Source: Flavobacteriales bacterium
GTDB taxonomy: Bacteria; Bacteroidota; Bacteroidia; Flavobacteriales_C; GCA-002722245
Assembly (NCBI GenBank): GCA_046074525.1
Contig: JBJTOK010000030.1
Span: 4,845 to 68,844 of the forward strand
Length of the DNA stretch: 64,000 nt
Direction of reading: 5' to 3'
The notes under the pieces are model-generated. The model was not told where the DNA came from and did not search any database. It saw only the letters and a list, made by a program, of their open reading frames with translations. Positions 4,629-38,634 of the stretch are shown here, piece after piece. Both the position numbers and the translations under genes were made by a program. Position 1 is the stretch's first letter, and each line of letters opens with the position of its first letter.

Positions 4629-4694
4629 GTGGCCAAAGATAGAAAACAATTGACTTATTTTTGTATATTAGGCGCCTTGTTTTAAACTAACGTT

Positions 4695-5273
4695 ATGCTG
4701 AACATTGTATTATTTGGCCCTCCGGGCGCAGGAAAAGGAACACAATCCACCCGCTTGTTGGAGAAATACGGACTCGTCCACTTGTCGACCGGTGATATTT
4801 TGCGCGCTGAAATGAGCGCTGGTACCGAACTCGGTAATAAAGCCAAAGCCCTGATTGAAAAGGGTGAGCTTGTGCCGGATGAAGTAGTGATTGGTATGAT
4901 AGACAATAAAATCAGCTCCAGCGTCAATAAGAAAGGTTTTATTTTCGATGGTTTCCCGAGAACCACTCCACAAGCCCAGGCTCTGGATGCTCTCCTCAGC
5001 AAAAAAGGCAGCGGTATTTCCTGCATGCTGTCGCTCGAGGTTCCTGAACAGGAGCTCATCGCGCGCTTGCTCGATCGAGGTAAAATCAGCGGAAGAGCCG
5101 ATGACCAGGACCAAAAAACCATTGCTAACCGCATTAAAGTTTATACCGAACAAACTCTGCCGTTGAAAGATTATTACAAGGCTCAGGGCAAACTGGCTTC
5201 CATTGAGGGAGTAGGAACAGTAGATGCTATCTTCGAGGCTTTATGTGATGCTATTGATGGCGTAAGTGCATAA
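4695..5273 (+). CDS. adk: Adenylate kinase (short LID type)
   Basis: GPPGAGKGTQ, STGDILR and FDGFPRT motifs. Confidence 0.97.
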   Translation: MLNIVLFGPPGAGKGTQSTRLLEKYGLVHLSTGDILRAEMSAGTELGNKAKALIEKGELVPDEVVIGMIDNKISSSVNKKGFIFDGFPRTTPQAQALDALLSKKGSGISCMLSLEVPEQELIARLLDRGKISGRADDQDQKTIANRIKVYTEQTLPLKDYYKAQGKLASIEGVGTVDAIFEALCDAIDGVSA

Positions 5274-5292
5274 ACTTTCTAAATCGCTACAT

Positions 5293-5318
5293 AAAAGCTG
5301 CCCCGCGCAGCTTTTTTT
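5293..5318 (+). terminator. Terminator-like hairpin between adk and obgE
   Basis: AAAAGCTG-ccccgcg-CAGCTTTT followed by a T tract. Confidence 0.65.
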
Positions 5319-5342
5319 ATACCTTTGACTTAAATTTTTCCT

Positions 5343-6329
5343 GTGGATACCAACTTTATAGATTACGTAAAAATATGCTGCCGCTCTGGTGCCGGTGGTG
5401 CCGGATCCATGCATTTCCACAGGGATAAGGTGACTTCCAAAGGTGGGCCCGATGGTGGAAATGGAGGGAGAGGTGGGCATATCATCCTGAAAGGAAGTTC
5501 ACAGCACTGGACTTTATTACACCTTAAGTACAGAAAGCACATCATCGCAGAGAATGGCGGGCCAGGCAGTTCCAGTCACAAAACCGGAAAAACCGGTGAA
5601 GATATTATTCTAGAAGTTCCGCTTGGGACTATTGCCAAGGATGCTGAGACCGGTGTGGTGGAATGTGAAATTGTAGAGGACGGTCAGACCTTCATTATTG
5701 CTCCCGGCGGTCGAGGTGGACTGGGAAATTCCAATTTCAAATCGGCTACCAACCAAAATCCCCGCTACCATCAGCCGGGTGAACCAGGCAAGGAAGACTG
5801 GAAGATTTTGGAACTCAAAGTATTGGCGGATGTTGGTTTTGTAGGTTTTCCGAATGCAGGCAAAAGTACCTTGCTATCGGTGATCACCGCCGCAAAACCA
5901 GAAATCGCAGATTATCCATTTACTACTCTTGTGCCTAACCTGGGCATTGTGAAATACGAAGATTACAAATCCTTTGTGGTGGCCGATATTCCGGGTATCA
6001 TCGAAGGAGCGCACGAAGGAAAGGGCCTCGGCCATCGCTTCCTGCGCCATATCGAAAGAAATTCTATTTTGCTTTTCATCATTCCTGCCGACAGTAAGGA
6101 TATCCGCAAGGAATTTGATATCCTGATGAATGAGCTGGAAGAGTACAATCCGGAACTACTCGACAAAAAAGTAGTGCTCGCCATCAATAAATCCGATATG
6201 CTGGATGAGGAACTCAAGCGCGAACTCATGAAGGAGTTGCCAAAAAAAGTGCCGCATGTGTTTATCTCCGCACTTCAGAAAAAAGGATTGGATAAGCTGA
6301 AAGACCTTCTGTGGAAGGAGTTGAAGTAA
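5343..6329 (+). CDS. obgE: GTPase ObgE/CgtA (GTG start)
   Basis: Gly-rich Obg fold; [18 protein letters not shown] and NKSD motifs. Confidence 0.97.
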
Positions 6330-6337
6330 TTCCTGAT

Positions 6338-6400
6338 TTCTCATATATTTCACAGATGTACACAGTTCTAATCTGTTATGATCTGTGAAATCTGTGGGAA
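6338..6400. repeat. Imperfect palindromic intergenic repeat built from CACAGAT/ATCTGTG units
   Basis: ATTTCACAGAT (6347-6357) is the reverse complement of ATCTGTGAAAT (6381-6391); further degenerate units flank it. Confidence 0.6.
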
Positions 6401-6425
6401 AATTTATTTATATCTTTAAAAAATC

Positions 6426-7007
6426 ATGGAAACTATCATTCAATGGGACAGGGACCTTTTCCGGTTCATCAACCAGAATCTGCATTCTGATGCGATGGAT
6501 CTGTTCATGTACTACCTCAGCGAGCGCTGGGTGTGGATTCCTGTTTATGCTTTCCTTACGGCCTGTATTTTTTATGCTTACAAAACCAGGGGCTGGTGGG
6601 TATTTCTAACGGTTCTCCTGCTGATTGCTTCCAGTGATATTATTTCTTCGCAGGTGATTAAAGAATTAGTGCAGCGCCATCGTCCCTGCAGGCCCGAAGT
6701 GGATTTGGGCTTTACGGTAAGGCTCCTGCCCGGAGAAGGTTGTAGCGAATATGGCTTTGTTTCTTCGCATGCCTCCAACTTTTTTGGAATGGCTGTTTTT
6801 TTCTCTCTGCTTTTTTACCGGAGAAATAAATGGTGGCTGTGGGGCGGACTGATTTGCGCCGTTCTTGTGGGCTTTAGCCGCATTTACCTGGGGAAGCATT
6901 ATCCTCTCGATATTATCGGTGGTGCTGTTTTCGGCGCTTGCCTCGCTTTTTTCTGGTACAAGACTTTGGTATGGTTTTTAAACCAAAGAGGATTATCTTT
7001 GTCCTAG
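6426..7007 (+). CDS. PAP2-family membrane phosphatase
   Basis: KxxxxRxRP, (F)VSSHA and SRIYLGKHYPLD motifs; hydrophobic. Confidence 0.92.
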   Translation: METIIQWDRDLFRFINQNLHSDAMDLFMYYLSERWVWIPVYAFLTACIFYAYKTRGWWVFLTVLLLIASSDIISSQVIKELVQRHRPCRPEVDLGFTVRLLPGEGCSEYGFVSSHASNFFGMAVFFSLLFYRRNKWWLWGGLICAVLVGFSRIYLGKHYPLDIIGGAVFGACLAFFWYKTLVWFLNQRGLSLS

Positions 7008-7097
7008 CCTGGCGAAACCTTAACAATACTGTAACTTTAGCCTCGTTTTGAAGTTATACCTTTTCAGGCAAGGTTATTGTGATTTAATTGAACCAGA

Positions 7098-9506
7098 ATG
7101 CACTTGTTTTTCCGCTACATAAATACCCTTATACTCGCCGCTCTGTTTTTATGGAACAGCTCCGTGTACGGGCAATTGCAGGTGGATCATCAGGATGCCA
7201 ACACTCTAGTTCGATCTATCTTACTTTGTCCCCAGATACAGGTTTCCAATTTAAAATTTACCGGAGATCAAAGTATGATTGGCCATTTCAACAGTTCAAA
7301 AGCCAATGTGGGGCTTACTGACGGAATTATCCTTAGCACTGGCGACATACAGGATGCTACAGGTCCCAACGACAGTAAGGGCGCTGGCGCATCGATGGGT
7401 TTAAGTGGCGATGCCGATCTTGATATTATTTCTTCCCCAACACATGATGCTGCTGTTCTTGAGTTTGATTTTGTGGCCATTACCGATTCGGTGGTGATCA
7501 ACTACGTTTTTGCATCGGAGGAATATCTGGAATTTGTGGATATGGGCTTCAATGACGTTTTTGGCTTCTTCCTCAGCGGTCCGGGCATCAATGGCCCCTT
7601 CAGCGGAAATGCAGTAAACATAGCCCTTACTCCCGGTACATCCACTCCTGTGAGTGTGAACACAATTAATGATGTTAAAAACTCCGGCCTTTATATCAAC
7701 AACGGAACGGGTGCTGCGGGTTCTTCGCAATTTACCAGTAATAAAGTGATACAGTTTGATGGATTCACTCGTCCGCTGGCAGCAAGATGTGCTGTTACGC
7801 CCGGTTTGAAATACCATATGAAAATTGCTATTGCCGACGTATCCGATGGTATTTACGATTCGGCGGTATTCCTGGAAGGGGGTAGTTTCTTCTCCAATGA
7901 ATATACTGTGCATGAAATCGCCACCAATCCTAAGGATCAGCTCTACGAAAATTGTGATAGTGTAGTGGTGACTTTCAAGATGAGCCCGTCTAAATTCAAA
8001 ATAGGTAAGCTTCCATTGAAATTCCAGGGAACTGCCACCAATGGTGTTGATTATGCCTTCCTGAAAGATTCGGTGGTCATCAATCCCAACAATGGCATAG
8101 GTACATTGGTGGTAAAGCCACTGAAAGATAATTTTAGCGACAATAACGAAACGCTGGACATCATTCTTAAAAAGTCGGCTTGTAATGAAGATACGCTTCA
8201 TTACCGATTTAAGGATTTGTTGCCAATTACGGTGACCAGTTATGATACATTGTATTGCGGTGGACCAATCACGATTGTGTCCAAATACAGTGGCGGAGCG
8301 AGTCCTGTGCTTACTTGGGCGCTTGATGGAAGCAATCAGAAGACCCTCAATGTGAATCCCGGATGGAATACCAAAGAATATACTTACACTGTCGACGACC
8401 ATTGCGGTCAGGGTCCGATACAAGGAAAAGTAAAAGCTATAGTAAACAACAAAAAACCCAACGCGGGTGCAGATAAGCGTTTTTGCAGCGGTCCGCCGGT
8501 GATTATTGGAGGTGGGGCAACAGTGGGTTATACTTATCAGTGGTCGCCTGTCGCGGGACTCGATAATTCGGCTAGTTCCCAGCCTTCCCTGAGCATCACC
8601 AATACCAGTGGTACCAAAAGCGTAGTGAACTACGTGGTGGAAAGTGACAACGGAATGTGTAAAGCCAAGGATACTGTTGTCGTTACTGTGCTGCCGAATC
8701 CCCTGGCAGTAATTGATCCTCTCACTTATTCGAAATGCCCGATTTTCTTTCTCAACCCGCTGGAACATTCTTCAGTATCCGATTCAGTGGAGTATGTATG
8801 GACTACTTCTGATGGTCAGCAGCAAACAGGGAAAGATGCTCTTCTTTCCTTTGCCAATCCGGGGAGCTACAATGTGTTTCTTACCGTAACCAACTATGGC
8901 TTATGCACCGATGAGGCTGCGGCTCTCAATCATGTAACAATACTTCCCACGCCGGTGGCTTCCTTCACAATGAGCAGCAATGAAGTGAATATGCTCGATC
9001 CCCTGGTTACTTTTGATGGAGCCCCGCTCTTCGCAGATTCCTGCTATATGGATGTTTTCGGTCCGGATGGCCAGTTACTCACCGCATCACCGCTATGCAA
9101 CTTTTCCTATGAAATTCCTGAAACCGGCTACAACAAAGCAGTGCAGTATGTAGTAGCTCAAAATGGTTGCCGGGATACATTGGAGCAGACAATTTATGTA
9201 AAACCCGAATACTTTGTTTATGCTCCCAATGCTTTTACCGTCAATAACGACGGATTGAACGAAAGCTTCAAAGTGTACTATTCATGGGCCATTGAAGATT
9301 TTGAATTTTACATTTACGATCGCTGGGGACATGAAATGTTTCACCAAACAGGCAATGGCTCCGAAGTAAGCTGGGATGGTAAAGCGGCCGATGGTACGCT
9401 GCAGCCGCAAGGGGTGTATGTATACATGTACACTTTCACACGACCTGTTCGAGGTAATTTATCCGAGAAGGTGCGCGAGTACGGTAAGGTTACTCTCGTA
9501 AGATAG
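7098..9506 (+). CDS. T9SS type-B-sorted surface protein (choice-of-anchor L-like N-terminus, PKD/Ig-like repeats, gliding-motility-associated C-terminal domain)
   Basis: YVFASEEY..F...FNDVFGFF domain; C-terminal PNAFTVNNDGLNESF..IYDRWG..WDG..GVYVY. Confidence 0.85.
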   Translation: MHLFFRYINTLILAALFLWNSSVYGQLQVDHQDANTLVRSILLCPQIQVSNLKFTGDQSMIGHFNSSKANVGLTDGIILSTGDIQDATGPNDSKGAGASMGLSGDADLDIISSPTHDAAVLEFDFVAITDSVVINYVFASEEYLEFVDMGFNDVFGFFLSGPGINGPFSGNAVNIALTPGTSTPVSVNTINDVKNSGLYINNGTGAAGSSQFTSNKVIQFDGFTRPLAARCAVTPGLKYHMKIAIADVSDGIYDSAVFLEGGSFFSNEYTVHEIATNPKDQLYENCDSVVVTFKMSPSKFKIGKLPLKFQGTATNGVDYAFLKDSVVINPNNGIGTLVVKPLKDNFSDNNETLDIILKKSACNEDTLHYRFKDLLPITVTSYDTLYCGGPITIVSKYSGGASPVLTWALDGSNQKTLNVNPGWNTKEYTYTVDDHCGQGPIQGKVKAIVNNKKPNAGADKRFCSGPPVIIGGGATVGYTYQWSPVAGLDNSASSQPSLSITNTSGTKSVVNYVVESDNGMCKAKDTVVVTVLPNPLAVIDPLTYSKCPIFFLNPLEHSSVSDSVEYVWTTSDGQQQTGKDALLSFANPGSYNVFLTVTNYGLCTDEAAALNHVTILPTPVASFTMSSNEVNMLDPLVTFDGAPLFADSCYMDVFGPDGQLLTASPLCNFSYEIPETGYNKAVQYVVAQNGCRDTLEQTIYVKPEYFVYAPNAFTVNNDGLNESFKVYYSWAIEDFEFYIYDRWGHEMFHQTGNGSEVSWDGKAADGTLQPQGVYVYMYTFTRPVRGNLSEKVREYGKVTLVR

Positions 9507-9557
9507 TTTGCGCTTTGTGCAGACTTATCCTACATTTACCCCTCAAAATTTTAGCTT

Positions 9558-10679
9558 TTGAAAATCGCATATCTTTCCACATTTTATCCTTTCCGCGGTG
9601 GCATCGCGCAGTTCAATGCATCGCTGTACCGAGCCTTTGAGCAGAAGCATGAAGTGCATGCTTTTACTTTCACGCGCCAGTATCCCGAAATTCTTTTTCC
9701 TGGAAAAACGCAGATGGTGGAAGACAAGGACATTGCCGATAAAATCCCTGCTGAAAGATTGCTCGATACAGTGAATCCTTTCACGGGAAGTATTACTGCT
9801 AAGGCCATCAATAATACACATCCTGATTTACTGGTGATGAAGTACTGGATGCCTTTTTTCGCTCCATCGCTTGGGGCAGTGGCTGCAAAAATGAAGAGTA
9901 AAACCAAGGTGATTGCCATTTTGGACAATGTTATTCCGCACGAAAAACATTTCTATGATATTCCACTTACCGAGTATTTCCTTAAACGTTGCGATGGTTT
10001 TGTGGTGATGAGTGAATCGGTGAGAACAGATCTGCTGAGTCTGCAACCCAAAGCAAAGTGTATTTTACATCAGCATCCTTATTACGATCATTTCGGTGCC
10101 AAGCTGGAAGTGGCTGAAGCCCGCAAAAAATTAGGTATTGGTAAGGAGCAGAAAGTGCTGTTGTTTTTCGGATTTATCCGTGCTTACAAAGGATTGGATA
10201 TTTTACTGGAAGCCTTTAAAAATGCGCCTTCCGACTATACTTTGGTCATTGCCGGAGAGCCCTACGAAGATTTTGAAAAATATCAGCCTGCGCTGGATGC
10301 CTTGAAAGCACAGGGAAAAAACATTATCGACCGCATTCGTTACATCGGTGATCACGAAGTGCCGGAATTGTTTTCGGCGTCGGATGTTTGTGTGTTGTCG
10401 TACAAAAGCGCAACGCAAAGCGGCATTGCTTCTATTGCTATGCATTTCGATTTACCAATGATTGTTACGCCTGTGGGTGGCTTGCCCGAAGAAGTCGATA
10501 ATGGAAAAACAGGGATGGTGACGGAAGAAGTTTCAGCTGGTGCGGTATGGAAATCGGTTGAACAATTTTTCTCTAAAAATCTCAAACCAGTTTTCCAGCA
10601 AAACATTGCTGCTACCAAGCAGGAGCGATCGTGGAAGGTTTTAGCGGATAGGATAGTGGATTTTTCTGAAACACTTTGA
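9558..10679 (+). CDS. Glycosyltransferase family 4 (TTG start)
   Basis: GGIAQF, FFGFIRAYKGLD, SATQSG and VGGLPE motifs of the GT-B fold. Confidence 0.9.
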   Translation: MKIAYLSTFYPFRGGIAQFNASLYRAFEQKHEVHAFTFTRQYPEILFPGKTQMVEDKDIADKIPAERLLDTVNPFTGSITAKAINNTHPDLLVMKYWMPFFAPSLGAVAAKMKSKTKVIAILDNVIPHEKHFYDIPLTEYFLKRCDGFVVMSESVRTDLLSLQPKAKCILHQHPYYDHFGAKLEVAEARKKLGIGKEQKVLLFFGFIRAYKGLDILLEAFKNAPSDYTLVIAGEPYEDFEKYQPALDALKAQGKNIIDRIRYIGDHEVPELFSASDVCVLSYKSATQSGIASIAMHFDLPMIVTPVGGLPEEVDNGKTGMVTEEVSAGAVWKSVEQFFSKNLKPVFQQNIAATKQERSWKVLADRIVDFSETL

Positions 10680-10680
10680 T

Positions 10681-10812
10681 TTACTCATAGCCACTATTAA
10701 TCTCGCTCAGTATATTTCTCGAAGCCCTTTGAGGGTGATGTTTCCCTTGATAATCGTTCCCCAGCGAGAACAATTCCAACAGTTTGATGATCAGTGTTTT
10801 CATGCGTTCCAT
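10681..10812 (-). CDS. Possible unannotated 43-aa small protein MERMKTLIIKLLELFSLGNDYQGKHHPQRASRNILSEINSGYE
   Basis: Translated by hand; ATG preceded by an A-rich leader; fills the gap between the GT gene and purL. Confidence 0.35.
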   Translation of the reverse strand: MERMKTLIIKLLELFSLGNDYQGKHHPQRASRNILSEINSGYE

Positions 10813-10924
10813 TTTATATCAATACGTGCTTGGAATTCGCCTTATTGCACGGGCGTATAAATAACTTTTAAACACCCTCTTTTTTCTCGGGAACAATAGT
10901 TATTTTTACGCTTTCTTGAAAATT

Positions 10925-13165
10925 ATGCAAACAAAAACAGCTCAACCTGCCGTTACTCTGGAAGTCGCGAAATCCGTAGGACTCCTTGAAAGTGAATTCG
11001 AAAAAATCAAATCAATATTAGGGCGTGAACCTAACTTCACTGAACTGAGTATTTTCTCGGTAATGTGGTCGGAACACTGCTCATACAAAAACTCCATCAA
11101 GTGGCTCAAAACCTTGCCACGTAAAGGAAGCAGGATGCTGGTGGAAGCCGGTGAGGAAAATGCGGGCTTGGTGGATATCGGTGAAGGATTGGCCTGCTGT
11201 TTCAAAATAGAATCGCACAATCACCCTTCTGCATTGGAGCCTTACCAAGGGGCTGCAACTGGAGTGGGGGGTATCAACAGAGATATTTTTACAATGGGTG
11301 CGCGCCCTGTAGCCCAGCTCAATTCCCTCCGTTTCGGAAACATTGATTTACCTAGAACAAAATGGCTCGTGAAGGGTGTTGTTTCAGGTATAGGTCACTA
11401 CGGAAATGCTTTCGGTATTCCGGTAGTGGGTGGCGAAGTTTTCTTCGACGATTGCTACAACCAAAATCCACTGGTAAACGCCATGTCGGCGGGAATCATG
11501 AAAGTTGGTGAGACCATTTCAGCGATCTCCAAAGGCGTTGGAAATCCAGTGTTTATCGTTGGTTCAGCAACAGGTAAAGATGGAATTCACGGAGCTACTT
11601 TCGCATCGGAAGACATTACTGAAGATTCTGAAGATAAAATCCCTGCTGTTCAGGTGGGTGATCCTTTCCAGGAAAAATTGTTACTGGAAGCTTCATTGGA
11701 ATTGATTAAAACTGGTGCCGTAGTAGGTATGCAGGATATGGGAGCAGCAGGTATAACCTGTTCTACTTCTGAAATGAGCGCCAAAGGTGAACATGGGATG
11801 GAAGTGCATCTGAACAAAGTTCCGATGCGCCAGGCGAATATGGAGCCTTTTGAAATCTTGTTGTCTGAGTCGCAAGAGCGTATGCTCGTTGTGGTGCACA
11901 AAGGCAGAGAAAAAGAAGTGCTCGATATTTTTGAAAAATGGGATTTGAACTGCGTTGAAATCGGGAAAGTAACCGAGGGCAACCGACTGAAATATTATTT
12001 CCACGGCGAACTTGTAGCCGATGTGCCTGCGGGTGACTTAGTGTTGGGTGGTGGCGCTCCGGTATACGACAGGGAATACAAGGAACCTGCGTATTATGCC
12101 GAATCCAAGAAGTTCAATATCGATCAGGTGAAAGAACCTTTAAACCTTCAGGAAGTGGCCGAAAAGATGATCAACCTGCCTAACATCGCATCTAAGAGAT
12201 GGGTGATTGAGCAGTACGATTCTATGGTGGGAACAGGAAATATGAGTACGAATTGTCCGACTGATGCGGGCATTTTCAATATCAAAGGAACCAACAAAGC
12301 ATTGGCGTTAACAGTAGATTGCAACTCACGTTACGTAAATGCCGATCCTGAAATTGGTACTGCCATTGCAGTTTCCGAGGCAGCAAGAAACATCGTGGTA
12401 TCGGGCGGTGAGCCTACAGCCATCACCAACTGCCTTAACTTTGGAAATCCATACGTGCCTGAAGTTTACTGGCAATTCGTTGGTGCTATTAAAGGGATGG
12501 GCGCTGCCTGTACAAAATTTGGTACTCCGGTGACCGGCGGTAACGTATCTTTCTACAACCAATCGAATATCGATGGAAAAGTAATACCTGTTTTCCCAAC
12601 GCCAACCATCGGTATGCTGGGCGTGGTAGACGATAAGAGCAACATCACTACCTTGTCTTTCCAGAAAAAAGGAGATTTGATTTTCTTGCTTGGTAAATCC
12701 GTTGATGATATTTCTTCATCAGAATACCTTGCAAATATCCAGGGCGTGAAACTTTCACCAGCGCCGTATTTCAACCTCGATGAAGAATACGAATTGCAGC
12801 AAACAGTGAAAAAACTCATCCAGGCCGATGTGCTGGAATCGGCTCACGACGTGGCCGATGGTGGGTTATTCATCGCCTTGTTTGAATCTTGCTTGCAGTA
12901 TGAATTAGGTTTTGATGTTACATTGCCTATCGAGTTCCGCAGAGATGCTTTCCTCTTTGGTGAAGCACAATCGAGAGTAGTAGTATCTATCAGTGAAGAA
13001 AATCATGATGCCTTCCTTAAGTTATTGGACGATTCAAAAGTTCCGCATACTTTGCTTGGCCATGTGACTAAAGGAGAATTGAGGGTGGATGACGAAAGTT
13101 ACGGCTTTATCGATGAGTTGAAACCTCAGTTCCAGAACGCTTTGGGCGATAAACTGAACAATTAA
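10925..13165 (+). CDS. purL: Phosphoribosylformylglycinamidine synthase subunit PurL (small type, needs PurQ/PurS)
   Basis: [24 protein letters not shown] and LSESQERM motifs; no glutaminase domain. Confidence 0.97.
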
Positions 13166-13176
13166 TAAGTCATACT

Positions 13177-13875
13177 ATGAAAAATAAGTTTTGGCTGCTC
13201 GGCTTGTGTCTAGTTGTATTGGCTTCCTGCAAAAAGGAAAGTCAGGATGATGATAAAAAAGACGAGGACAACAACGTCACTTGTGATAAAGTGTGGACAG
13301 TCAAAACTTCAGTAGGTGCAACGGTTAGCGCATCCATCGCCGATGGAGCCCTTGCTTTGTCTTCTACCAATACGGCATCAGGGTTGGTGCCACTCACCGT
13401 TTATCAAAATGGCATTAGCGGTGATTTTGAGTTAACTTTTTCTTTTGAAAATTTCCAGTCGGTTAGCGGTGCAGGTGGCTATATTCAACTCGCCGTTACT
13501 GATACTTTAGGCAGCACGGGTAACAGGTGCACAGCGGGTATCGGTACTTTGCCTGTCACCGGCATCAGTGCCGTTGTGGATTCTACAGGAGGCGACAATT
13601 CTCATATTGTTATTAAAAACAGCACTTCTACCAGTGGTTCCTTCAATATGAAAAGAGTGGGTAGCCTGATAACAGTGACCACCATCGCGGGCACAGATAC
13701 TGCAAAAGTGAGTTCTTCTTTTTCCACGAAAGCCTTGCAATTTGGCTTTCAGCTGGGCAACAGCAATGTTGCAGCGGTGAGTGGAGTAACGTCTATCAAG
13801 ATCACCGACTTCACCATTGTCAATGGTGGAGGTACAGTGAAATCTGATAAATTCGATTGCTCTTCGCTGAAATAA
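13177..13875 (+). CDS. Hypothetical lipoprotein (Ser/Thr-rich, beta-rich)
   Basis: Lipobox LASC followed by a K-rich/acidic export signal. Confidence 0.7.
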   Translation: MKNKFWLLGLCLVVLASCKKESQDDDKKDEDNNVTCDKVWTVKTSVGATVSASIADGALALSSTNTASGLVPLTVYQNGISGDFELTFSFENFQSVSGAGGYIQLAVTDTLGSTGNRCTAGIGTLPVTGISAVVDSTGGDNSHIVIKNSTSTSGSFNMKRVGSLITVTTIAGTDTAKVSSSFSTKALQFGFQLGNSNVAAVSGVTSIKITDFTIVNGGGTVKSDKFDCSSLK

Positions 13876-13921
13876 AGATACTTTTGCTGAGCTGCAGGGT
13901 CCTAATTAATTGATGTTGTAC

Positions 13922-16900
13922 ATGAAAAAGTTTATCCTTCTTACCTTTTCCATTCTTTTACTTTTTGTTTTTTGTGCACAGGCACAGACTTCCACAGTTG
14001 AAAATACGCTTCTCTGGCGTATCAGCGGTAAAGGAGTGAAAACTTCTTATTTATATGGAACCATGCACGTTCGTGATGCGCGTGCTTTTGACTTTGCCGA
14101 TTCGGTGCTCGTCGCTTTCGGTAGTTGTGAAAGCTACGCTACCGAAGTCCACCCCGACAGTTTGAACCAGATTCTCTTTGGTACACTGGAAAAAAAACTC
14201 AGCAAAAAATTTTTTGACGATTACGACGACGATGATTTCATCAATAGTTTAGGTAAAGAAAAATACGATGAAATTGACCGCAAAATGCAGCGGGAATCAG
14301 GTATCAGTCTGAACCAGCTCAAAAGTAAAAATCCGCGCTACATCCGCTCTCTGTTGAGCGAAGTGGAAAATGAAAAAGATTCTAAACCGGTTTTTCTCGA
14401 CCTCTATCTTTTTGATATGGCCGGTGGTGAAAACAAAACGGTTTACGGACTGGAATCGATGCAGGGCACGCAAAAAACGCTCTCCGCATTGAAGCTGAGC
14501 ACCCGTGAGCATTACGAAATGGAAGTAGGGGCGATAGATAAAATCCGCTCTATGGAAAACCTCATTAATTATTACCATGATAATGATTTACAGGCGGTGG
14601 AGGAATTGTTCAACGACACTACCTTATTTGATTTGCAGTACAGAAAAGTATTGCTCGATAACAGGAATGTCATCATGGCGCACAGCATTGATACGATCAT
14701 TCACCAGAAAAGCAGTTTTATTGCAGTGGGTTGTGCGCATTTACCAGGTCAATATGGACTCATTACTTTGCTTCGCAAGATGGGATTCACTGTTGAGCCT
14801 GTTATGCCTGCGAGAACCGGAAAAGCAGCGGTTTATCCTATTAAATTGCGTGAGCTGGAATGGCAGGACATGAAGGATACACTTTCCGGTTACACCATTA
14901 GCTATCCCGGAAAACCTTATCCGGTGAAGGTTCCATACACTGCTTCTGATATGTATTGCTATAATGATCTGGGCAAGGGTATTGTATTGTTCAGCTACGG
15001 TATCGTTTCAGGAAAAGACGACAATTCCCTGAGTGAAAAAGTACTGATGCGAATGGTGAAGCAGAAATCGGGGAAGATCCTGCTGAAGAAAAATATCACT
15101 GTTCAAAAAAAAGAAGCGCTCTATGCCGAATTGGAAATGAGTGGCTATCAGTACAAAATTGTGCTGCTTAATAATGAAGGCGTACTGTATATGCTCATGG
15201 GAGGCGCAGAAGATGAACAGCTCACTGCAGGCTTGTTTCAGAAGTTCGTCGATTCGTTCAGGTTTAGTGAAATGGCACGTAAAGACTGGACTGATTATTC
15301 TTCCGAGCGTGATGCCTTTGCAGTGCGTTTTCCCGGTACGCCTACCATGCGCGAAATGGATGCTTCCAACATGAAAGTGCGCATGTACCTGTCGAGTAAC
15401 CAATCGGCTAACGCAGCCTACATTGTACAATGCATGGATCTTGACAATGGCAAGTACAACAGCGATGATTCACTGATGCTAAAGACCATTGGCGACAATG
15501 TTGCTGCGAGCTTAGGGAAAGTGAAAATCTCTTCTGACAGATATGGAAGCATTGGTGACTATCCGGCGCGATTTATCGATATAGAGACGAAATCCATCAA
15601 CTACCGTTTTGTCAATATTTTACGTCTTAATAGAATTTACAATCTCATCATTACTTATAGTGGGGCGAACAAGGATGAAACCGATGCCTTTATTTCTTCT
15701 TTTTCCTTTGCTCCTTTTGCTGAACCGCAATCACATAAAATTTCGGATGAAGGCTTGCCTTTTAGTTTGAGTGTACCATTTAAGGCCGATGCCGACACCA
15801 CCCGATATAATGATAAAGGCGTGCTGGAAGAATATTCCTGGGAAGGCAACGACGAAAACAGTTCGGGTTTGTACATGGTGAATTACAGAAAATACTCCTC
15901 GCTGTATTCCTTAAGCGATAGCGCTTTTCAGGCAATGATCAAGGAGATGTACGTAGAGGAAAATGATTCACTGGTTTCCGAAAAAAAGACGGAATTGACA
16001 GGCGCTGTGCGCTACGATTTCATGTTCGATATTCCTAGCAGCCATGTCCGTAAAAAAACAGCACACATCCTGAAAGGAAATGTATTGTTATCGACGGTGG
16101 TCTATTACGTTCCTGAACAAAGTACTTCACCAGCTTTTGCTGATTTTGTCAATGATGTTACTTTCAACGATAAGCTGATTACAGGCAATCTTTTCAGCGA
16201 TAAGAAAGAAGCATTGAAAAAAGAATTGACCAAGCCTACGCTGAAAGCGGAAGAAATTAAGAAATCGATTGAAACAACAGAATGGAAAGACGAGGACAGT
16301 GATTTCCTGGTGTCGCTGCTTTCCAAAAAATATGAAGATGACAGTCTGGATTATTATTCCGTAAAGACCGAGCTTTATGCGGCTTTGAAAGAGATAGACC
16401 ATAAGAAAGTAACGCCGAAGCTGCAGAAAATGTACCAGGGCTTGAGTAATAGTGACAGAAAACGTGCATTGAGATATTTGGCTTCGACAAAGGAGATGGA
16501 GGCACTTACTTTCATGAAAGAAGCCCTGCTCAATCATTCTGTTTCGTATTCCCAGGCCTATGAATTCAGCGGACTATTGTATGAGTTTAATGATTCTGTG
16601 GAGTTGGTGCAAAAGATATATCCGGCTTTGTTGCCTTTGATTACCGATACCTTCACCTGTCGTTCCATGTATTCTACCTATAGACTGGCACTAGACAGCG
16701 GGTGGATCAATCTGTCGGATTTCAGTGCTTACAGTAGTGATATCCAGAAAAGGTTTATGGAAGATATCAATGAAGTTCTCGCGCAAAAAGATGTGGATCC
16801 GGAAGCTTATATTCCTTATTGGCTTAGTAATGGCGTGGATCTCGTGTATGCTTTGCAGTTGCACAATGAAAGCATCAATGCTAAAGTAAAAGACGTTGCC

Positions 16901-32670: not shown

Positions 32671-32904
32671 ATGAAAAATACTGAAGAGGGAATAATTCCT
32701 GAAGAAATAATTATGGATAAAATTTACTTTATCTGCGGACAAAAAGTAATGCTGGATAATGATCTGGCTGCTTTATATGATGTAGAGACAATGCAGCTTA
32801 AGCGACAAGTAAGACGCAATATTGAACGCTTTCCTAAGGATTTTATGTTTGAGTTGACTCAGGAGGAACTCAATAACTTGAGGTCGCAAATTGCGACCTC
32901 ATAA
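32671..32904 (+). pseudogene. ORF6N-domain gene, 5' part, interrupted by an integrative element
   Basis: GQKVMLDNDLAALYDVET..LKRQVRRNIERFPKDFMFEL...LRSQIATS, followed by a stop supplied by the element end. Confidence 0.9.
32878..32901. repeat. Left att core (palindromic)
   Basis: TGAGGTCGCAA-A-TTGCGACCTCA, perfect 11-bp arms. Confidence 0.88.
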
Positions 32905-32925
32905 AACCTATGGAGCGGCTTGATA

Positions 32926-32956
32926 AATCAAGGGATTAGGCTTATTCAAGGGCTTG
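32926..32956 (+). promoter_or_regulatory. Two IHF-like host-factor sites between the att core and the arm sites
   Basis: AATCAAgggaTTA matches WATCAANNNNTTR; ATTCAAgggcTTG has 1 mismatch. Confidence 0.45.
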
Positions 32957-32957
32957 A

Positions 32958-32979
32958 GAGTAACAAAGGGGTAACAAAA
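32958..32979 (+). repeat. Putative integrase arm-type sites (left)
   Basis: GAGTAACAAAGGGGTAACAAAA, 20/22 identical to 38190-38211; tandem GTAACA at 11-bp spacing. Confidence 0.7.
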
Positions 32980-33049
32980 AGTGCAGAACCGGGGCTAATT
33001 AGCCCGAAACTACTCAGTTTTATGCTCCTTTGGGTTTACCTATCTTGAG

Positions 33050-33355
33050 CTATTCCAATGCTTTTCCACGAAAAACAAGAAATTCTGTTGAGCCAAAGCC
33101 AACACCATGTTCAAGTCCTTTTACTTGGCAAATTTTACCATTCTCTAAACATGGTGTTATTCTCGCAAACAATGTGTCTCCCTCTTGAAATCTTGCGCCA
33201 CTTGAAGGTTTCCGCTTATTGCTTGGAAAACAAAATTTATTTCCATCCTGTAAATCCTTCATCTCAACAAATGAATATTCTTCATTTCCCCTTAAAGAAA
33301 CGGTTGGGCTGATTTGTACAAAATCGGAAAACTTATATTCCTTCCACTCACTCAT
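33050..33355 (-). pseudogene. hsdS: Truncated type I R-M specificity subunit (101 aa, part of TRD1 only)
   Basis: [27 protein letters not shown] and GFGSTEFLV motifs; stops long before the normal ~400-aa length. Confidence 0.85.
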
Positions 33356-34986
33356 TTTTCATTTTGTATTCGTTCAACATCTCTCTCAATATCCTGCAAC
33401 ACGAAATTATAGACGGTTTCTACAATGGATTCTATTTCTTGCGCCGTAAGTTGCTCGTGATACAACTTTTTTATGAATGGTTGTTGGTTGTTGTAGTTGA
33501 CCAATGCGAACCCATACCAATAGGTTTCAATTTTAAAATTGATTTGAAATCCTGAACCAATATCTGCTGTACCGGCTTTTTTTAAGCCGAATAAGCGATA
33601 AGAGAAATACAATTCAAAATTGTTTTTTAAAAATTGTTCGTCTTTCCATCCCTCGGCCAACTGGCTTATGTCGGTGATATTCTTTTCTTTTCCCTGCCAT
33701 TGACAAGTACACGAATAAAATAACTCTTTAACGTCTTTCATTCCTTTAAGCAAGGCTTGATAAAGGGGAAGCACGCTTTTATCAATTATTTCAAATAAAA
33801 TAGCGGTAGTGGCAGTTTGTTTAATACCGTCACCTTTTAGTTGCGCCAATTTTTCTTTTAAAGAATCAAAGCGCTTTTGAGAAGGACTTTTTAGTTCTTC
33901 GTACTCTTTTTCAATTTCGGCTTCCAGTTCTTCAACAGTGGGTAGTTCGCCACGAATATTTTGAGGCAAGAGTTCATTAATCTTGTATTCGGCAATACCG
34001 ATTGGCTTAGAAGAATCACGCAAAGCATATTCCACTACCAAGCCATCTTTGGTTTTGCAAAGAATTAAACCAATGGATTTTTCATCGTCTTTTTGTTTCA
34101 GGTGTTCATCGGCAAGGTTGAGATAAAACTCCATTTTGCCCTTATACTCCGGCTTGAACTCATCTATTTTTAAATCAATAATGATATATCTTTTCAAGCG
34201 GGTGTGGTAAAAAAGTAAGTCGAAAAAATACTCTCGTTCGCCAATCATCACTTTGTATTGTCTTCCCATGAAGGCGAAATGTTGCCCCAACTCCAGTAAA
34301 AACTTTGTGAGTTGATTCATGAGAGCATCTTCCAAATCACGTTCTTTGGCCTCTTTACCGAGATAGATGAATTCAAACTTGTAAGGGTCTTTAAATAATT
34401 GTTGAACCAGTTCGGATTGTTCAGGAGCAATAGTATTTTTAAAATTGCTTGTTATTTTTCCAACTCTTTGGTGTAAACCACCCTCAATTTGATGCACCAT
34501 TACATCGCGGCTCCATCCATTTTGTATGGTTTCCTGTACATAAAACAAGCGAGTTTCTTTGTCTTTAACCTTATCGAGCAGGGTGGTGTGGTGATACCAG
34601 CTTAATTTTGCAAGCGATTCCTGCAAAATCATAACATTTTGAATATCAGTTCTTTGTAATTTTGCAGGCGTGCCCTGCAAAATTGGTAATGTATCGATAT
34701 TTCCCAATTCGGGGTAGGCAAGAGCAAAATCTCTCATGTATCTCAGGTTACGTTGAGAAAAGCCTTTCATATCGGGAAATTCCGTTGATAGGTCTTTTGA
34801 AAGCTGCACTACAACCTTTGCTCCCCAGCCTTTTGTTTTTTCTTGAGCAGAAACAATCATACCGACTTCCCAATACAGTTTTAACAGCTCAACATTGACC
34901 GTAATAGCCGCCTTTGTGCGAGCTTGCCGTATCTTTTCCTTGAGGGTGTTTAATATGTTGATATAATCAGGATGCAATAGGCTCAT
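33352..34986 (-). CDS. YhcG/DUF1016 PD-(D/E)xK nuclease-domain protein with a C-terminal extension
   Basis: LYWEVG, GWG, GFSQRNL..MR.F, LSWYHH, KDPY.FEF, DLLFYH and IDLK motifs. Confidence 0.92.
34603..34684. repeat. Two tandem palindromic sites ATTTTGCA-N9-TGCAAAAT, 54 bp apart, inside yhcG
   Basis: 34603-34629 versus 34657-34683: 23/27 identical, and each site is an inverted repeat. Confidence 0.75.
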
Positions 34987-36556
34987 ATTGAATTTTTTTC
35001 AAGTTGTTTTGAATACGCTTGCTTAATTCGGCTTCTTCGGCAATTTGAGCATCCAATTCTGCTTTCAGTTTGTTAAAGCGTTCGGCGAAATTAAAATCAT
35101 CTTCATCATCAGGCAGCCCAATGTACCTGCCGGGCGTAAGTACATAGTTGAGTGCTTTTACTTCGGCAATGCTTGCACTTTTGCAAAAACCTTGTATATC
35201 CTCATACTTGCCTTCGCCAGTGCGCCAGTTGTGGTACGTTCCGGCAATATCGGTAATATCATCTTTGCTTAAATCGCGGTTTTTACGACTAATTAAATGC
35301 CCGTGATTGCGGGCATCAATAAACAGGATTTCGCCCTTGCGCTGTTTTTTATCTCGGCGAATAAACCACAAACAAGCGGGTATCTGTGTATTGAGAAACA
35401 ACTTGGTAGGCAAGTTCACAATGCAATCAATCAAATCTTTTTCGATAAGAGCCTTGCGAATTTCTCCTTCGTTATTGGTTTTGGTGGTTAATGAACCTTT
35501 GGAAAGAACAAAGCCCGCCATCCCCGTTGGAGCTAAGTGATAGAGGAAATGTTGTATCCACGCATAGTTGGCATTGCCTGTTGGCGGCACTAATTTTTCG
35601 CCCAAAACGCTCCAACGGGCATCGCCTTGTAATAATTCGCCACTCCAATCGCTATCGTTGAACGGTGGATTGGCAATGATATAATCGGCCTTTACATCCT
35701 TATGGGCATCGTTTAAAAAGCTGCCTTCGTTATTCCACTTCACGTTGCTGCTGTCAATTCCACGAATAGATAAATTCATTTTTGCCAACCGCCACGTAGT
35801 TTGGTTGCTTTCCTGACCGTAAATACTAATGCGGTCTTTTGGATTAACATTGAGTTTTCCTTTGTTGTGTTTTTTGTAATAATCCTGATGCGATTGAATA
35901 AATTTTTCACTTTGCGCGAACATACCGCCGCTACCACAGCATGGGTCGAACACGCGCCCCTCATAAGGTTCGAGCATTGATACTAACAAGCGCACTACGC
36001 AGGCAGGCGTATAGAATTGTCCGCCCTTTTTGCCTTCGGCCAATGCAAACTCACCTAAGAAATATTCAAACACCTGACCCAACACATCTTTGCTTTGCGC
36101 TTCTTTAGTACCAATTACAGAAGTGCTTATCAAATCAATTAAAGCTCCCAAGCTTTGTTTATCAAGCTTTTCCTGCGCATATACTTTGGGTAATACTCCT
36201 TTGAGTGACGGATTATCTTTTTCAATAGCGTCCATTGCTTCGTCAATCAACTTTCCGATGATAGGTTGTTTGGCATTGGCTTGTAGATTTTCCCATCGGG
36301 ATTCTTTAGGAACGAAAAAAACTTTCTCGGCAAGGTATTCGTTTTTGTCTTCAGGGTCGGCTCCTTCGTATTGTCCTTTGCCTTCTTTTAAAGTATTGTA
36401 TAATTCATTGAAAGCATCGGAGATATATTTTAAGAATATCAAACCTAAAGCCACGTGCTTATATTCCGCAGCATCCATGTTTTTGCGGAGTTTATCAGCG
36501 GCCTTCCAAAGTTTCTTTTCTAAGGCTTCTTCAACTGCTTCTTTTTTCTTTGCCAT
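34967..36556 (-). CDS. hsdM: Type I restriction-modification DNA methyltransferase subunit M
   Basis: [29 protein letters not shown] and NPPF motifs. Confidence 0.96.
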
Positions 36557-36638
36557 TTACTCTTTTTTAAAATCGCATAAATATAAATGTAATTACTATG
36601 GGAATTACTCGCTGTTGAAAACAAATCATTCGTAGTTA

Positions 36639-38069
36639 TCACATTGTGTTTCTGGGGTCTATCATGGTTTTATTGGGTTGTTTTTCTTGAGTGGAAAACA
36701 CCTGAAACTCCGTACCTCTTGGATGATAACGGTTTTTGCTGGTGATAGCAACGCCATCTTCAACTTTAGCGGCAATATCGGTATCATGAATAATCTCCTG
36801 CGATCCGCGCATTTTGCCGTCTTTAGTGGATTGTGATATGGTGATGAATCCCGATTGCGGGTAGTGTTCTCGTAGTTCTCTCAAGCGTGGCGCATCAATC
36901 TTAAGAGTGTCGAGACTGTCAATGAAAATAAAATGAAATTTATCGTTCGGATTCGGCAGGGCTTTAACCGCATTGGTTTTTCTTTGGTCTCTTACGTGGG
37001 CATATATCTGTGTTGCACTGATACTTTTATGCCCAAGTAGTTTCGATACCGTCCATAAATCACCTTCGGGGCTATTTTCCAAAACATTGGTGGCGAAGGT
37101 GTGCCGCCCAGTATGAAAGTGCATTCGCGGTTTTTCTATCCCTGCTGCTTCAGCCCATAGTTTTAAAGAATAAGAAACCTTTTTATAAATTTTATCTGTT
37201 CCTTCTATTTCCTTCGCTTTCGGGAAAACGAAGAGGCTTTTGTCTTTGTTTTTCTCTTGTTCTTTTTTCCGCTCTTGCAATATTTCAACGGCTTGAGGAG
37301 AAAGCGGAAGGTATTCTATATCCTCCGTTTTTTCCTGCTCAAAATAAATAAACCATTCTTCCTGCCCATCAATCATTTTGGTAATGATTTCCGACCAGCG
37401 CAGCGGATTAACGTCACTCCAACGAAGTCCTGTAAAGCAGGAAAACAAGTAAGCCTGTTTATATTGAACTTCTATGTTATAAGGGGTTTCCCATAATTTT
37501 TGTAGTTCATCAATCGTAAAGGCACTACGAAAGATCGGTTTTAGTTTTAATCTTTCGTGACGGGGAATTTTTCGCATAGGATTTACATATATAATGTCCT
37601 TCCTCACTGCTTCCTCCAAAGCGGTGAAAATTGTTTTTAGGTAATAAATGGTACAGTTGTTACTCACCCTGTTAAGCATGAATTTACTGAACTCTTTAAT
37701 CCAATCGGGGTTTATGGAATGAAAAGGAATAAGTTTGCCATTGGCAAAAGTTTGGAGGTGCTTCAAAGTTTTTAGGTTATTGCGTTGATTCGCCTGCTTC
37801 CCTTTGGCGTAGGTTTCAAACCAAGCTATAAAATCAGCTTTGCGTTTGCTTTTGTCTTGAAGCCCGTTGTCCTGAACAATCAATTCATTTTCTCGCTGCG
37901 ACCTGATTTGTTGAGCAAGCTTTCTTTTTTCTTTGTCCTGCTCGGTCGGACGGTTTTTGTTGATGCAAATGTTTAGAAACTCGTAGCGGCGTTTCTTGTT
38001 GTGGTAAATGTCGAGGTAAAAGGATACTTGACCATTTCCCAACTTTTTTTCTCTCAAATAAACTCCCAT
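36639..38069 (-). CDS. Tyrosine recombinase/integrase (Arm-DNA-binding, SAM-like and catalytic domains) fused to the C-terminal half of a RecA/RadA-like ATPase
   Basis: TGLRWSD (R), QEKT (K), HTGRH, LLGH and TQIY (Y) all present; tail FIFIDSL...ITISQSTKDGKMRGS..IIHDTD. Confidence 0.9.
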   Translation of the reverse strand: MGVYLREKKLGNGQVSFYLDIYHNKKRRYEFLNICINKNRPTEQDKEKRKLAQQIRSQRENELIVQDNGLQDKSKRKADFIAWFETYAKGKQANQRNNLKTLKHLQTFANGKLIPFHSINPDWIKEFSKFMLNRVSNNCTIYYLKTIFTALEEAVRKDIIYVNPMRKIPRHERLKLKPIFRSAFTIDELQKLWETPYNIEVQYKQAYLFSCFTGLRWSDVNPLRWSEIITKMIDGQEEWFIYFEQEKTEDIEYLPLSPQAVEILQERKKEQEKNKDKSLFVFPKAKEIEGTDKIYKKVSYSLKLWAEAAGIEKPRMHFHTGRHTFATNVLENSPEGDLWTVSKLLGHKSISATQIYAHVRDQRKTNAVKALPNPNDKFHFIFIDSLDTLKIDAPRLRELREHYPQSGFITISQSTKDGKMRGSQEIIHDTDIAAKVEDGVAITSKNRYHPRGTEFQVFSTQEKQPNKTMIDPRNTM

Positions 38070-38127
38070 AACACATGGTTTTAAAGGTTTAACAATATCC
38101 TTTCAAGCCCCATATTAAAAGCCTTTC

Positions 38128-38177
38128 GGGACTTTTGTTGGGGACTTTTGTTGGGTACTTGAAGGTTCATGAACCTT
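38128..38177. repeat. Tandem 13-bp repeats plus a palindrome upstream of the integrase
   Basis: GGGACTTTTGTTG x2 (38128-38153) plus partial GGTACTT; AAGGTTCATGAACCTT palindrome at 38162-38177. Confidence 0.65.
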
Positions 38178-38189
38178 TGAAAACTATTG

Positions 38190-38211
38190 GAGTAACACAC
38201 GGGTAACAAAA
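38190..38211 (+). repeat. Putative integrase arm-type sites (right)
   Basis: GAGTAACACACGGGTAACAAAA, matches 32958-32979. Confidence 0.7.
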
Positions 38212-38317
38212 ACCCGCAAAACCCTTCGATTTAGACCAAATTAGGCATAAATCGAAAATGTCGTAACTATTTGAAAATAAGACTTTAACTTGATTTAGTT
38301 AGCTTTTCCTTTGTTTT

Positions 38318-38341
38318 TTGCGGTCGCAATTTGCGACCTCA
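38318..38341. repeat. Right att core (palindromic)
   Basis: TTGCGGTCGCAA-T-TTGCGACCTCA, 22/24 identical to the left core. Confidence 0.88.
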
Positions 38342-38634
38342 AGTTGGGGAGGTATTCGTCATCTCCCCATGGCTTTCACCGAACAAGGAGTAGCAATGCT
38401 TTCCAGCGTATTGAACAGCAAAAAGCCATTGAAGTAAATATTCAAATCATTCGAATTCTTACACGAATGAGGGAAATGATGCTTACACATAAAGACATTT
38501 TATTGAAGCTTGAACAAATGGAAAAACAAGTTGCAGAAAATCGTAAAGACGTTCTGTATATATTCGACTTGCTTAAGAAATTGGTACAGCAATCTAATGA
38601 ACCACGGACCAAGATTGGATATAAATTATCTTAA
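38321..38634 (+). pseudogene. ORF6N-domain gene, 3' part (frame change at the A5 run 38420-38424)
   Basis: Reading from 38321 gives [35 protein letters not shown]; the -1 frame continues [16 protein letters not shown]...KIGY. Confidence 0.88.

Follow-up and report, generated by a model that had tools for sequence, protein, structure and literature searches.

Elements that interrupt coding sequences can act as switches, as exemplified by phi10403S in comK, skin in sigK, SPbeta in spsM and the nifD/fdxN elements. Some integrases target symmetric tRNA or tmRNA stems and Tn7 targets the 3' end of glmS, and IntDOT-type integrases are known to tolerate heterology in the coupling sequence. The locus considered here is an ORF6N gene in a 64,000-nucleotide stretch of a Flavobacteriales bacterium (contig JBJTOK010000030.1; 'the window' denotes this whole stretch), which is interrupted by a 5440-bp element. 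Probably the element is an island that inserted site-specifically at the dyad of a 31-bp palindrome, a pre-existing and conserved, structure-constrained nucleic-acid element of the ORF6N / PDC-S05 gene.

Direct reading of the window places the interruption of the ORF6N (PF10543) gene at 32890/38330. The parts of the split gene and the two attachment (att) sites, with expectation values (E) and positions on the hidden Markov model (HMM) profile where available, are as follows.

32671-32904, plus strand: ORF6N 5' part, 77 codons ending in NLRSQIATS; PF10543 profile 2-62, E 2.7e-25
32875-32907, no strand assigned: attL, consisting of host arm 32875-32889, centre A at 32890 and element arm 32891-32907 (TTGCGACCTCATAAAAC)
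38313-38345, no strand assigned: attR, consisting of element arm 38313-38329 (GTTTTTTGCGGTCGCAA), centre T at 38330 and host arm 38331-38345
38330-38437, plus strand: ORF6N 3' part in the original frame, 35 codons followed by a premature TAA; PF10543 profile 60-86
38425-38634, plus strand: rest of the ORF6N 3' part (AIEVNIQII...KIGYKLS) in another frame, within the open reading frame (ORF) 38311-38634; HMM columns 100-171

A previous sequence-only reading of this DNA had described a split by a 5440-bp element with 24-nt repeats, a perfect palindrome with 15-bp arms on joining of the flanks and a TAA placed by the element end directly after the motif, and all three descriptions are borne out. 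The terminal repeats (32878-32901 and 38318-38341) are identical at 22/24 positions with a spacing of 5440 bp, and the stop TAA of the 5' part, located at 32902-32904, comes from the element end. The arms of the host flanks, 32875-32889 and 38331-38345, are perfect 15-nt reverse complements about a single W, so that a precise join yields a palindrome with 15-bp arms around one W. As attL and attR are each near-palindromic, a point missed by that reading, the terminal repeats are both direct and inverted (33 nt, 94%), and attL as single-stranded DNA has a predicted fold of -11.5 kcal/mol (z -8.5). The 17-nt core GGTCGCAAWTTGCGACC is present in the 3.69-Mb genome only at the two junctions, with 0 matches for the control pattern, and scans for tRNA genes and Rfam families over 31-40 kb detected no tRNA gene or relevant Rfam family at the insertion site. 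A reading as an inversion was discarded: the sites are also inverted repeats, yet the inverted order yields no ORF6N frame, which the direct join does.

The empty site is observed in relatives. An intact ORF6N gene with the uninterrupted palindrome is found in four congeneric genomes (G001:C7, G003:C34, G006:C116 and G007:C19), in each of which the stretches homologous to the two halves meet, with overlap, at the palindrome. The intact gene of G003 and G006 is located a few kb from the pgi segment that flanks the window's copy, synteny being partial. The reconstructed attP, GTTTTTTGCGGTCGCAA-W-TTGCGACCTCATAAAAC, is a near-palindrome which matches the target over 24 bp. In the sequencing data, Logan contigs from four runs of one freshwater study, contigs of runs X1 and X2 span the attL junction, and attR together with the frameshift region described below is identical in contigs of runs X1 and X4. 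Short palindrome-bearing contigs with other flanks (X1, X4) were considered as the strain's empty site and rejected, as they belong to other ORF6N-like loci.

The 3' half of the interrupted gene has decayed. Judged against every homolog, including the paralog G000:C47 of the same genome (G000) and the G001 ortholog, it has lost 1 nt in the A5 run 38420-38424, with a stop at 38435-38437. Of the in-frame join claimed previously, the resumption of the C-terminal part in frame at 38330 holds; because of the A5-run frameshift, which had escaped notice, however, a precise join of the halves would encode 108 amino acids (aa) versus ~176 aa. Against the PF10543 cut-off of 27.8 bits, the N-terminal part scores 88.9 bits and the C-terminal part 27.4 bits in the window and 31.6 bits, above the cut-off, in the genome search.

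The target palindrome itself is not a peculiarity of this locus. ORF6N genes have a match in 180/401 genomes of the class, a tally that includes the unpublished genomes G111 and G195, and are also found in viral and metagenomic contigs. Genes gathered from genomes, 80 metagenome contigs and 80 viral contigs were aligned to an HMM built from 24 proteins, and codons were read at 11 motif columns, which gave a column-based set of 177 unique genes (47 genomic, 78 metagenomic, 52 viral) that was compared with 200 synonymous resamplings. Around the motif centre a mean of 12.54/15 positions pair, versus 5.79 expected for the same proteins with the codon usage of the family, and 148/177 genes exceed all 200 codon resamplings; the check on palindromy at synonymous positions proposed with the sequence-only reading thus came out in its favour. 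When the palindrome centre is scanned along the whole gene, the motif reaches 12.54, the runner-up 7.26 and the median position 3.79.

Pair counting in 144 distinct 35-mers gives the same picture, with 89.2% of cells paired versus 69.6% in shuffled sequences (0/500 reach the observed value), a covariation score of 0.483 versus 0.148 in shuffles, slid-partner controls at 28-43% paired and changes on both sides in 13/14 pairs; as the sequences are related, these shuffle counts overstate significance. At least 9/14 pairs are present in all 169 evaluated unique genes and at least 11 in 153, whereby in this tally and in the pair-counting test the centre was picked per gene, which favours pairing, a bias of which the column-based test is free. 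For each of the pairs 4, 5, 7, 8, 10, 11 and 13, two to four Watson-Crick combinations are found, often accompanied by concerted changes in the protein (NL..SS, NW..SN, SL..LK and SS..LK; R/K/M opposite ACC/ACT/ACA), and rare codons such as AGG are retained where paired. With 150 distinct 31-mers among the 177 genes, the structure is conserved and the sequence variable. The palindrome commonly consists of arms of ~11-14 bp around a 7-nt centre, mostly CAAWTTG, with a fairly conserved half-site TTGAGGTCRCAA. Arms of 10-11 bp persist in a paralog in the own genome and in a viral group whose 7-nt centre is non-palindromic, which indicates that the arms and not the centre are the constant feature. 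A metagenome-assembled genome (MAG) of the Thermodesulfovibrionales also carries the palindrome, which is therefore not confined to this class. Cumulatively, sequence comparison strongly supports the view that the palindrome is conserved at the nucleic-acid level in almost every ORF6N gene and does not simply follow from the LRSQ(I/F)ATS peptide. In the accessible part of the literature on ORF6N or PDC-S05, supplements aside, no mention of a palindrome in ORF6N genes was found.

The palindrome is, moreover, observed in two reading frames. Seven genes (five distinct sequences) keep a core of the type GGTC(A/G)CAAWTTG(T/C)GACC in another frame, for example GAGGTGGTCGCAAATTGCGACCACCTC, with the centre at codon position 2 and the peptide EVVANCDHL, ELVTNCDQL or ELVPIWHQF instead of LRSQIATS. 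In these genes the ORF6N domain is conserved on both sides of the motif, and some of them possess one extra codon in each arm, a symmetric insertion. In the AlphaFold model of the G001 protein (mean predicted local distance difference test, pLDDT, 75.7) the segment corresponds to the end of helix 64-73 and a loop with pLDDT <50 at 75-78; as modelled, the protein would give little reason for the conservation of the motif. It follows from the family-wide palindrome that the strong conservation of LRSQIATS in the Pfam family reflects, at least in part, a signal at the level of nucleic acid.

That the encoded segment is a low-confidence loop tolerating many sequences, lengths and even another frame would fit a functionless palindrome that perpetuates itself in a tolerant loop by template-switch (quasi-palindrome) mutation and, being fragile, attracts recombinases; the clustering of rearrangements around the motif, described below, points in the same direction. 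However, none of the 169 unique genes evaluated, whether genomic, metagenomic or viral, lacks the palindrome, the Thermodesulfovibrionales MAG has it too, and its position within the gene is fixed. The paired rare codons such as AGG, the symmetric one-codon insertions in both arms and the independent copies outside of genes also speak against lack of function, which makes this the least probable of the explanations considered.

Is the selected molecule DNA or RNA? A strong stem in which pairing is maintained by covariation could act as a hairpin in the mRNA and so govern how a defence protein, possibly a toxic one, is translated, processed or kept stable, and some of the copies upstream of the genes could fall in 5' untranslated regions. 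However, the mismatch tally over the 177 genes lists, in the sense strand, 60 G:T versus 107 A:C and 269 other mismatches, GU/UG pairs amount to ~1-2% of cells in the 144 distinct 35-mers, and 97 genes have A and 79 have T at the centre. Rare wobble pairs and an A/T-balanced centre are as expected of a strand-symmetric DNA element, unlike an mRNA hairpin. As in addition the hairpin has no Rfam match and downstream and tandem upstream copies would be hard to explain, a function at the mRNA level appears quite unlikely.

Copies of the palindrome outside the coding sequence bring in a further explanation, an operator or roadblock for a dimeric DNA-binding protein, most simply ORF6N itself, that would act in autoregulation or looping and be exploited by the integrase. 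Palindromes of the same kind are present within 300 nt upstream of 20/168 genes, often as pairs 27-64 bp apart, a concentration ~100x the background rate, and downstream at 8/167 genes; the background, the rest of the same loci, contains 3 in 730 kb. The upstream tandem copies look like operators, and the fairly conserved half-site would suit a shared binding protein. ORF6N has a predicted DNA-binding fold with a long C-terminal helix; no sequence relative of ORF6N was found in PDB, and Foldseek retrieves with the model weak matches (E at least 0.065) to winged-helix-like Dachshund/Ski domains. On the other hand, upstream copies accompany 12% of genes, whereas the internal copy is found in nearly all, and the strict co-variation of the arms across 150 distinct 31-mers is better accounted for by pairing within a strand than by recognition of a common sequence. 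The upstream sites, furthermore, resemble their own internal site hardly more than they resemble random sites. An operator is thus possible, if somewhat unlikely, as the native role. That each site keeps its own self-complementarity points to intrastrand pairing, in a hairpin or cruciform.

A hairpin- or cruciform-forming DNA site for recombination or rearrangement is the best guess for the native role, to be held tentatively, with the protein-bound operator or roadblock ranked next and the mRNA hairpin thereafter; in general, the analysis leans towards a hairpin- or cruciform-type DNA site in recombination or regulation. Elsewhere in the window, strong GC-rich palindromes followed by T runs (13/14 pairs) at 1042 and 25478 resemble ordinary intrinsic terminators.

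The motif region is a rearrangement hot spot. Among 128 matches in 131 genomes, 12 rows of the N-type end at profile positions 63-75 and 6 of the C-type start at 48-62; these counts include the two halves in the window and, of three partial rows of the unpublished G111, one (C275, 48-84, C-type). Each of the 13 truncated loci that were fetched retains a whole palindrome, with the break immediately next to it; two of these loci have lost internal sequence between motif and C-terminal end, and in one gene the motif stands three times in tandem. In-frame duplications of the motif occur in L195 and L210. As a side observation, two or three tandem in-frame palindrome motifs stand in one open frame in L315 (G081:C4:92287-92610), L195 and L210, and the arm of the first motif copy in L210 resembles the element-side arm (…ATGACCGCA…). 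Short ORF6N proteins that end at or just after the motif in a large protein database were not counted as insertions, because they derive mostly from short contigs and the palindrome can break assemblies.

The only further insertion at the palindrome that was found is on the metagenome contig L199, where a 2.3-kb toxin-antitoxin-type insert begins at the palindrome core and brings a replacement 3' half, with no integrase within 12 kb. At L199:5860-9760, two ORF6N genes and a spare 3' half are surrounded by about ten palindromes of the CAAWTTG type within 4 kb, and toxin-antitoxin-like genes (NTP_transf_2, DUF2442, DUF2281) are interspersed; the layout resembles a cassette array, and the available 12.4 kb of the contig contain no recombinase. 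On L130 (4125-5120), a 3' half of the other-frame subtype, which begins at its complete palindrome, lies 130 nt downstream of an intact ORF6N gene. This 3' half is preceded by a copy of the upstream region of the intact gene, as if a deletion between upstream and internal palindrome had occurred.

In its widest form, a recombinational role would mean that ORF6N / PDC-S05 genes are built around a universal hairpin-type recombination site, comparable to attC or dif, at which cassettes, alternative gene halves and islands with defence cargo would be exchanged, inserted or lost. This is unlikely; if true, ORF6N genes would be nucleation points of defence islands, which would explain their 'defence-associated' scoring.

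With respect to the inserted element, its genes (integrase, hsdM, a DUF1016/YhcG gene and an hsdS fragment) are all encoded on the minus strand. From left to right the element contains the following features.

32960-32980 (= G000:C30:37804-37824), plus strand: arm-type repeat GTAACAAAGGGGTAACAAAAA near attL, candidate arm site of the integrase, from repeat and pattern search
33050-33355, minus strand: hsdS fragment, 101 aa, N-terminal part only; PADLOC Specificity_I, E 1.1e-20, profile 12-113/571, no Pfam match
33352-34986, minus strand: protein with DUF1016_N and YhcG PDDEXK nuclease domains (Pfam), 544 aa; PADLOC candidate PDC-S02, E 1.2e-138
34967-36556, minus strand: HsdM, Type I methylase subunit, 529 aa; PF02384 (E 1.6e-105) and PF12161, TIGR00497 below cut-off
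36639-36944, minus strand: ~100-codon tail fused to the 3' end of the integrase gene; tblastn 59-72% identity, G026:C5 and G026:C19
36945-38069, minus strand: tyrosine integrase proper, aa 1-375, with Arm-DNA-bind_5, Phage_int_SAM_5 and Phage_integrase domains
38192-38212, plus strand: arm-type repeat GTAACACACGGGTAACAAAAA close to attR, also conserved ahead of the integrase genes of relatives

A 21-nt repeat, GTAACAnnnGGGTAACAAAAA, is situated ~60-125 bp inside each element end and also upstream of integrase relatives, as would be expected of arm-type sites. The element does not hold a complete Type I restriction-modification set: only hsdM and the 101-aa hsdS fragment are present, hsdR having been sought within the element. 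At 544 aa, the DUF1016/YhcG protein is longer than its G026 relative (352 aa), and no Pfam family matches the final ~180 aa of the former; within its gene an imperfect 27-31-nt direct and inverted repeat (TAATTTTGCA.GCG…CCTGCAAAAT) is located at 34603-34684.

The integrase ORF (36639-38069, minus strand) matches PF17293, PF13102 and PF00589, the catalytic profile being covered at 4-171/172 with E 9.2e-26, and XerC-, XerD- and IntI-type structures match it weakly. The stretches GLRWSD, HTGRHTF, LLGHKS and QIYAH at aa 214, 319, 344 and 354 presumably constitute the R/HxxR/H/Y catalytic set. The statement that all catalytic residues are present accordingly agrees with the domain coverage and the expected stretches; a fusion at the C-terminus had been overlooked. 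With 476 aa, the protein is ~90 aa longer than its relatives, whose open frames have mostly 384-389 aa, and its C-terminus is replaced by a foreign tail of 100 aa, which is homologous to the C-terminus of a 488-aa AAA/KaiC-like ATPase (L080:13721-15187, Pfam). In G026:C5 and G026:C19 such an ATPase gene lies 3.7-4 kb downstream of the integrase. G026:C19 encodes a 299-aa protein and an HTH_17 (excisionase-like) protein between integrase and ATPase, followed after the ATPase by DUF1016 and methylase genes. The HTH_17 excisionase-like gene of the relatives is absent from the window's element. The ATPase remnant in the tail and the gene order in G026 imply that a deletion removed the excisionase-like gene and most of the ATPase gene and thereby fused the frames. 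The element in the window is thus an ordinary, decaying integrative island, and the frameshift in the target gene, the loss of the excisionase-like gene and the integrase fusion give the copy an old appearance. The insertion is probably a fixed gene disruption and not a working on/off switch; the proposal that excision would switch the gene back on is contradicted at this locus by the same three features.

The sequence-only reading had further proposed that the protein motif is really an attB site and ORF6N genes dedicated landing pads of an integrase family, with insertion and excision turning the gene off and on. A DNA-level site used by this element at its dyad is indeed what the motif encodes; a dedicated attB finds no support. 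In favour of landing pads, the element sits exactly at the dyad with an attP that copies the site, a relative of the element described below has the same core type, the palindrome core in L199 has received another, independent insertion, breakpoints of ORF6N genes accumulate at the motif, and L195, L210 and L315 contain in-frame duplications or triplications of it. However, of the integrase relatives (17 matches in 15/401 genomes of the class, 38-62% identity), the 16 that were fetched are located at other sites; a scan of genome contigs yielded six distant matches of 26-43% identity. Within ~10 kb of the 16 fetched relatives, neither an ORF6N fragment nor a CAAWTTG palindrome was found, and their presumed att cores differ in sequence from the core in the window. 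Conversely, none of the 13 truncated ORF6N loci, with their whole palindromes and breaks beside the dyad, has an integrase-like match within ~8 kb, so that the search for other ORF6N genes split next to related integrases ended at 0/16 and 0/13.

The pattern of the element arms identified no other element in 201 genomes of the class, and outside G000 it matched only ordinary ORF6N-associated palindromes. Nor did the viral collection provide one: seven matches in viral contigs were dismissed, as all are in the start of an unrelated gene (MKQLLKSQIATTEN...) without integrase or ORF6N. On the viral contigs L288-L293, an unrelated gene that begins MKQLLKSQIATTENQ… has GTCGCAAWTTGCGAC on its DNA; the core and the SQIAT peptide hence also occur at the N-terminus of another protein family. 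As, finally, excision cannot restore this copy, the excisionase-like gene is absent and no advantage is evident for a host gene that retains a site at which it can be disrupted, dedicated landing pads with a switch function are very unlikely.

The relative with the same core type is found at G000:C69:17122-29076 (L093 ~4120-16080). It is an integrase-less element of 11.8 kb with homologous ends and the arm repeat, and its core reads GTGTTTTGAGGTCACAA.../...TGTGACCGCATAAAAC. It sits at the centre of a palindrome unrelated to ORF6N with arms of at least 50 nt, 96% complementary, and the central 5 nt differ between its two junctions. The central-base differences of this element and of the window's element resemble the coupling-sequence heterology tolerated by IntDOT-type integrases. 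Integrase paralogs with 52-56% identity are present at contig ends of the same genome (G000:C33:6-866, C66:83820-84356, C34 and C72; loci L095, L096), with the same upstream arm repeat, a different presumed att core and a position beside a hairpin-rich repeat (…GAAGCAACCT…AGGTTGCTTC…). They are probably copies of a multi-copy element that breaks the assembly.

In the mechanism favoured here, a small island with a Bacteroidota-type tyrosine integrase and defence-type cargo would have recombined into the dyad of the ORF6N palindrome. The pre-existing conserved symmetric site would have served as attB for an attP that is a near-copy of it, and the palindrome is kept by compensatory substitutions and even when it is read in another frame. 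The integrase presumably catalysed the event, with a crossover within the shared 24 bp that left the differing central base as coupling-type heterology. Several points weigh against this account or limit it. The centre is A in attL and T in attR and one arm position differs in addition, which leaves the exact crossover unfixed by the data. No contig joins 32901 to 38342 or shows a circle among the Logan contigs of the four runs, which, as contigs are unable to reveal rare forms, counts neither for nor against. Because of its C-terminal fusion the integrase, as judged from its gene, may be inactive, and the insertion could stem from a paralog acting in trans, for which the integrases of 52-56% identity at the contig ends C33 and C66 are a possible source. 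With respect to the palindrome, half-sites upstream agree with their own internal site at 6.94/10 positions versus 6.38/10 for random sites (n=16), and the per-gene choice of centre and the relatedness of sequences pointed out above reduce the weight of the pair counts.

Along its entire length the intact ortholog agrees with the PADLOC candidate PDC-S05 (E 8.8e-68), so that, as far as gene content tells, an island with defence-type cargo disrupted a candidate defence gene. In one preprint, plating of T7, T5 and T4 in E. coli B is reported to be reduced by a PDC-S05 representative described with a Virulence_RhuM domain (10.1101/2024.09.26.614923); in view of the RhuM domain, this result may not transfer to the ORF6N-only protein here. 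Independently of defence, it appears that an entire, widely distributed gene family holds, besides its protein code, a second one at a fixed position: a DNA palindrome that determines which amino acids are used and persists when the reading frame changes. If it is a recombination or regulatory site, it would provide a handle on the regulation and shuffling of defence-island genes and on the choice of gene-internal targets by integrases. For annotation, two cautions follow: conservation of a peptide motif can reflect selection at the DNA level, and the label 'defence-associated' can arise from a gene being an insertion hot spot.

How does the locus compare with described systems? With the comK-, sigK-, spsM- and nifD-type switches it shares an element within a coding sequence, an in-frame join of the flanks and the lack of a supplied replacement half; it differs in that excision here yields 108 aa and the excisionase-like gene is missing. 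The attC sites of integrons are likewise imperfect palindromes conserved in structure and variable in sequence; they are recombination sites that flank cassettes, and the insert in L199 is cassette-like, with no integrase of its own. Unlike attC, the ORF6N sites are near-perfect over 31 bp, lack the extrahelical bases known there and are inside a gene. The integrase is not of the IntI type, as integron-integrase models score 46 and 31 bits versus cut-offs of 265 and 435, and neither attI nor a cassette promoter is apparent, no search aimed at these having been made. As with tRNA- or tmRNA-targeting integrases and Tn7, a mobile element uses a sequence that the host conserves for its own reasons, and tRNA targets are symmetric as well; here, however, the symmetric site is inside a coding gene, the protein does not account for its conservation, and insertion destroys the gene instead of restoring it.

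A similar architecture is known from the IntDOT/NBU-type elements of Bacteroidota, whose integrases combine Arm-DNA-bind_5, SAM_5 and catalytic domains as found here. The integrase beside one end, arm-type repeats near both ends and a short core with a non-identical central position are further shared traits, and full relatives of the window's element carry an HTH_17 Xis-like gene and the ATPase. In contrast to these elements, this copy has 5.4 kb, no mobilisation genes, no Xis-like gene and an integrase that is a fusion, its target is a perfect palindrome inside a coding gene and not a tRNA 3' end or a GTANNTTTGC-type site, and its attP is itself a near-palindrome of the target sequence. The element as such is ordinary; its target is not, being a family-wide, frame-independent DNA palindrome in a coding gene that is kept by compensation and of which no earlier description was found.

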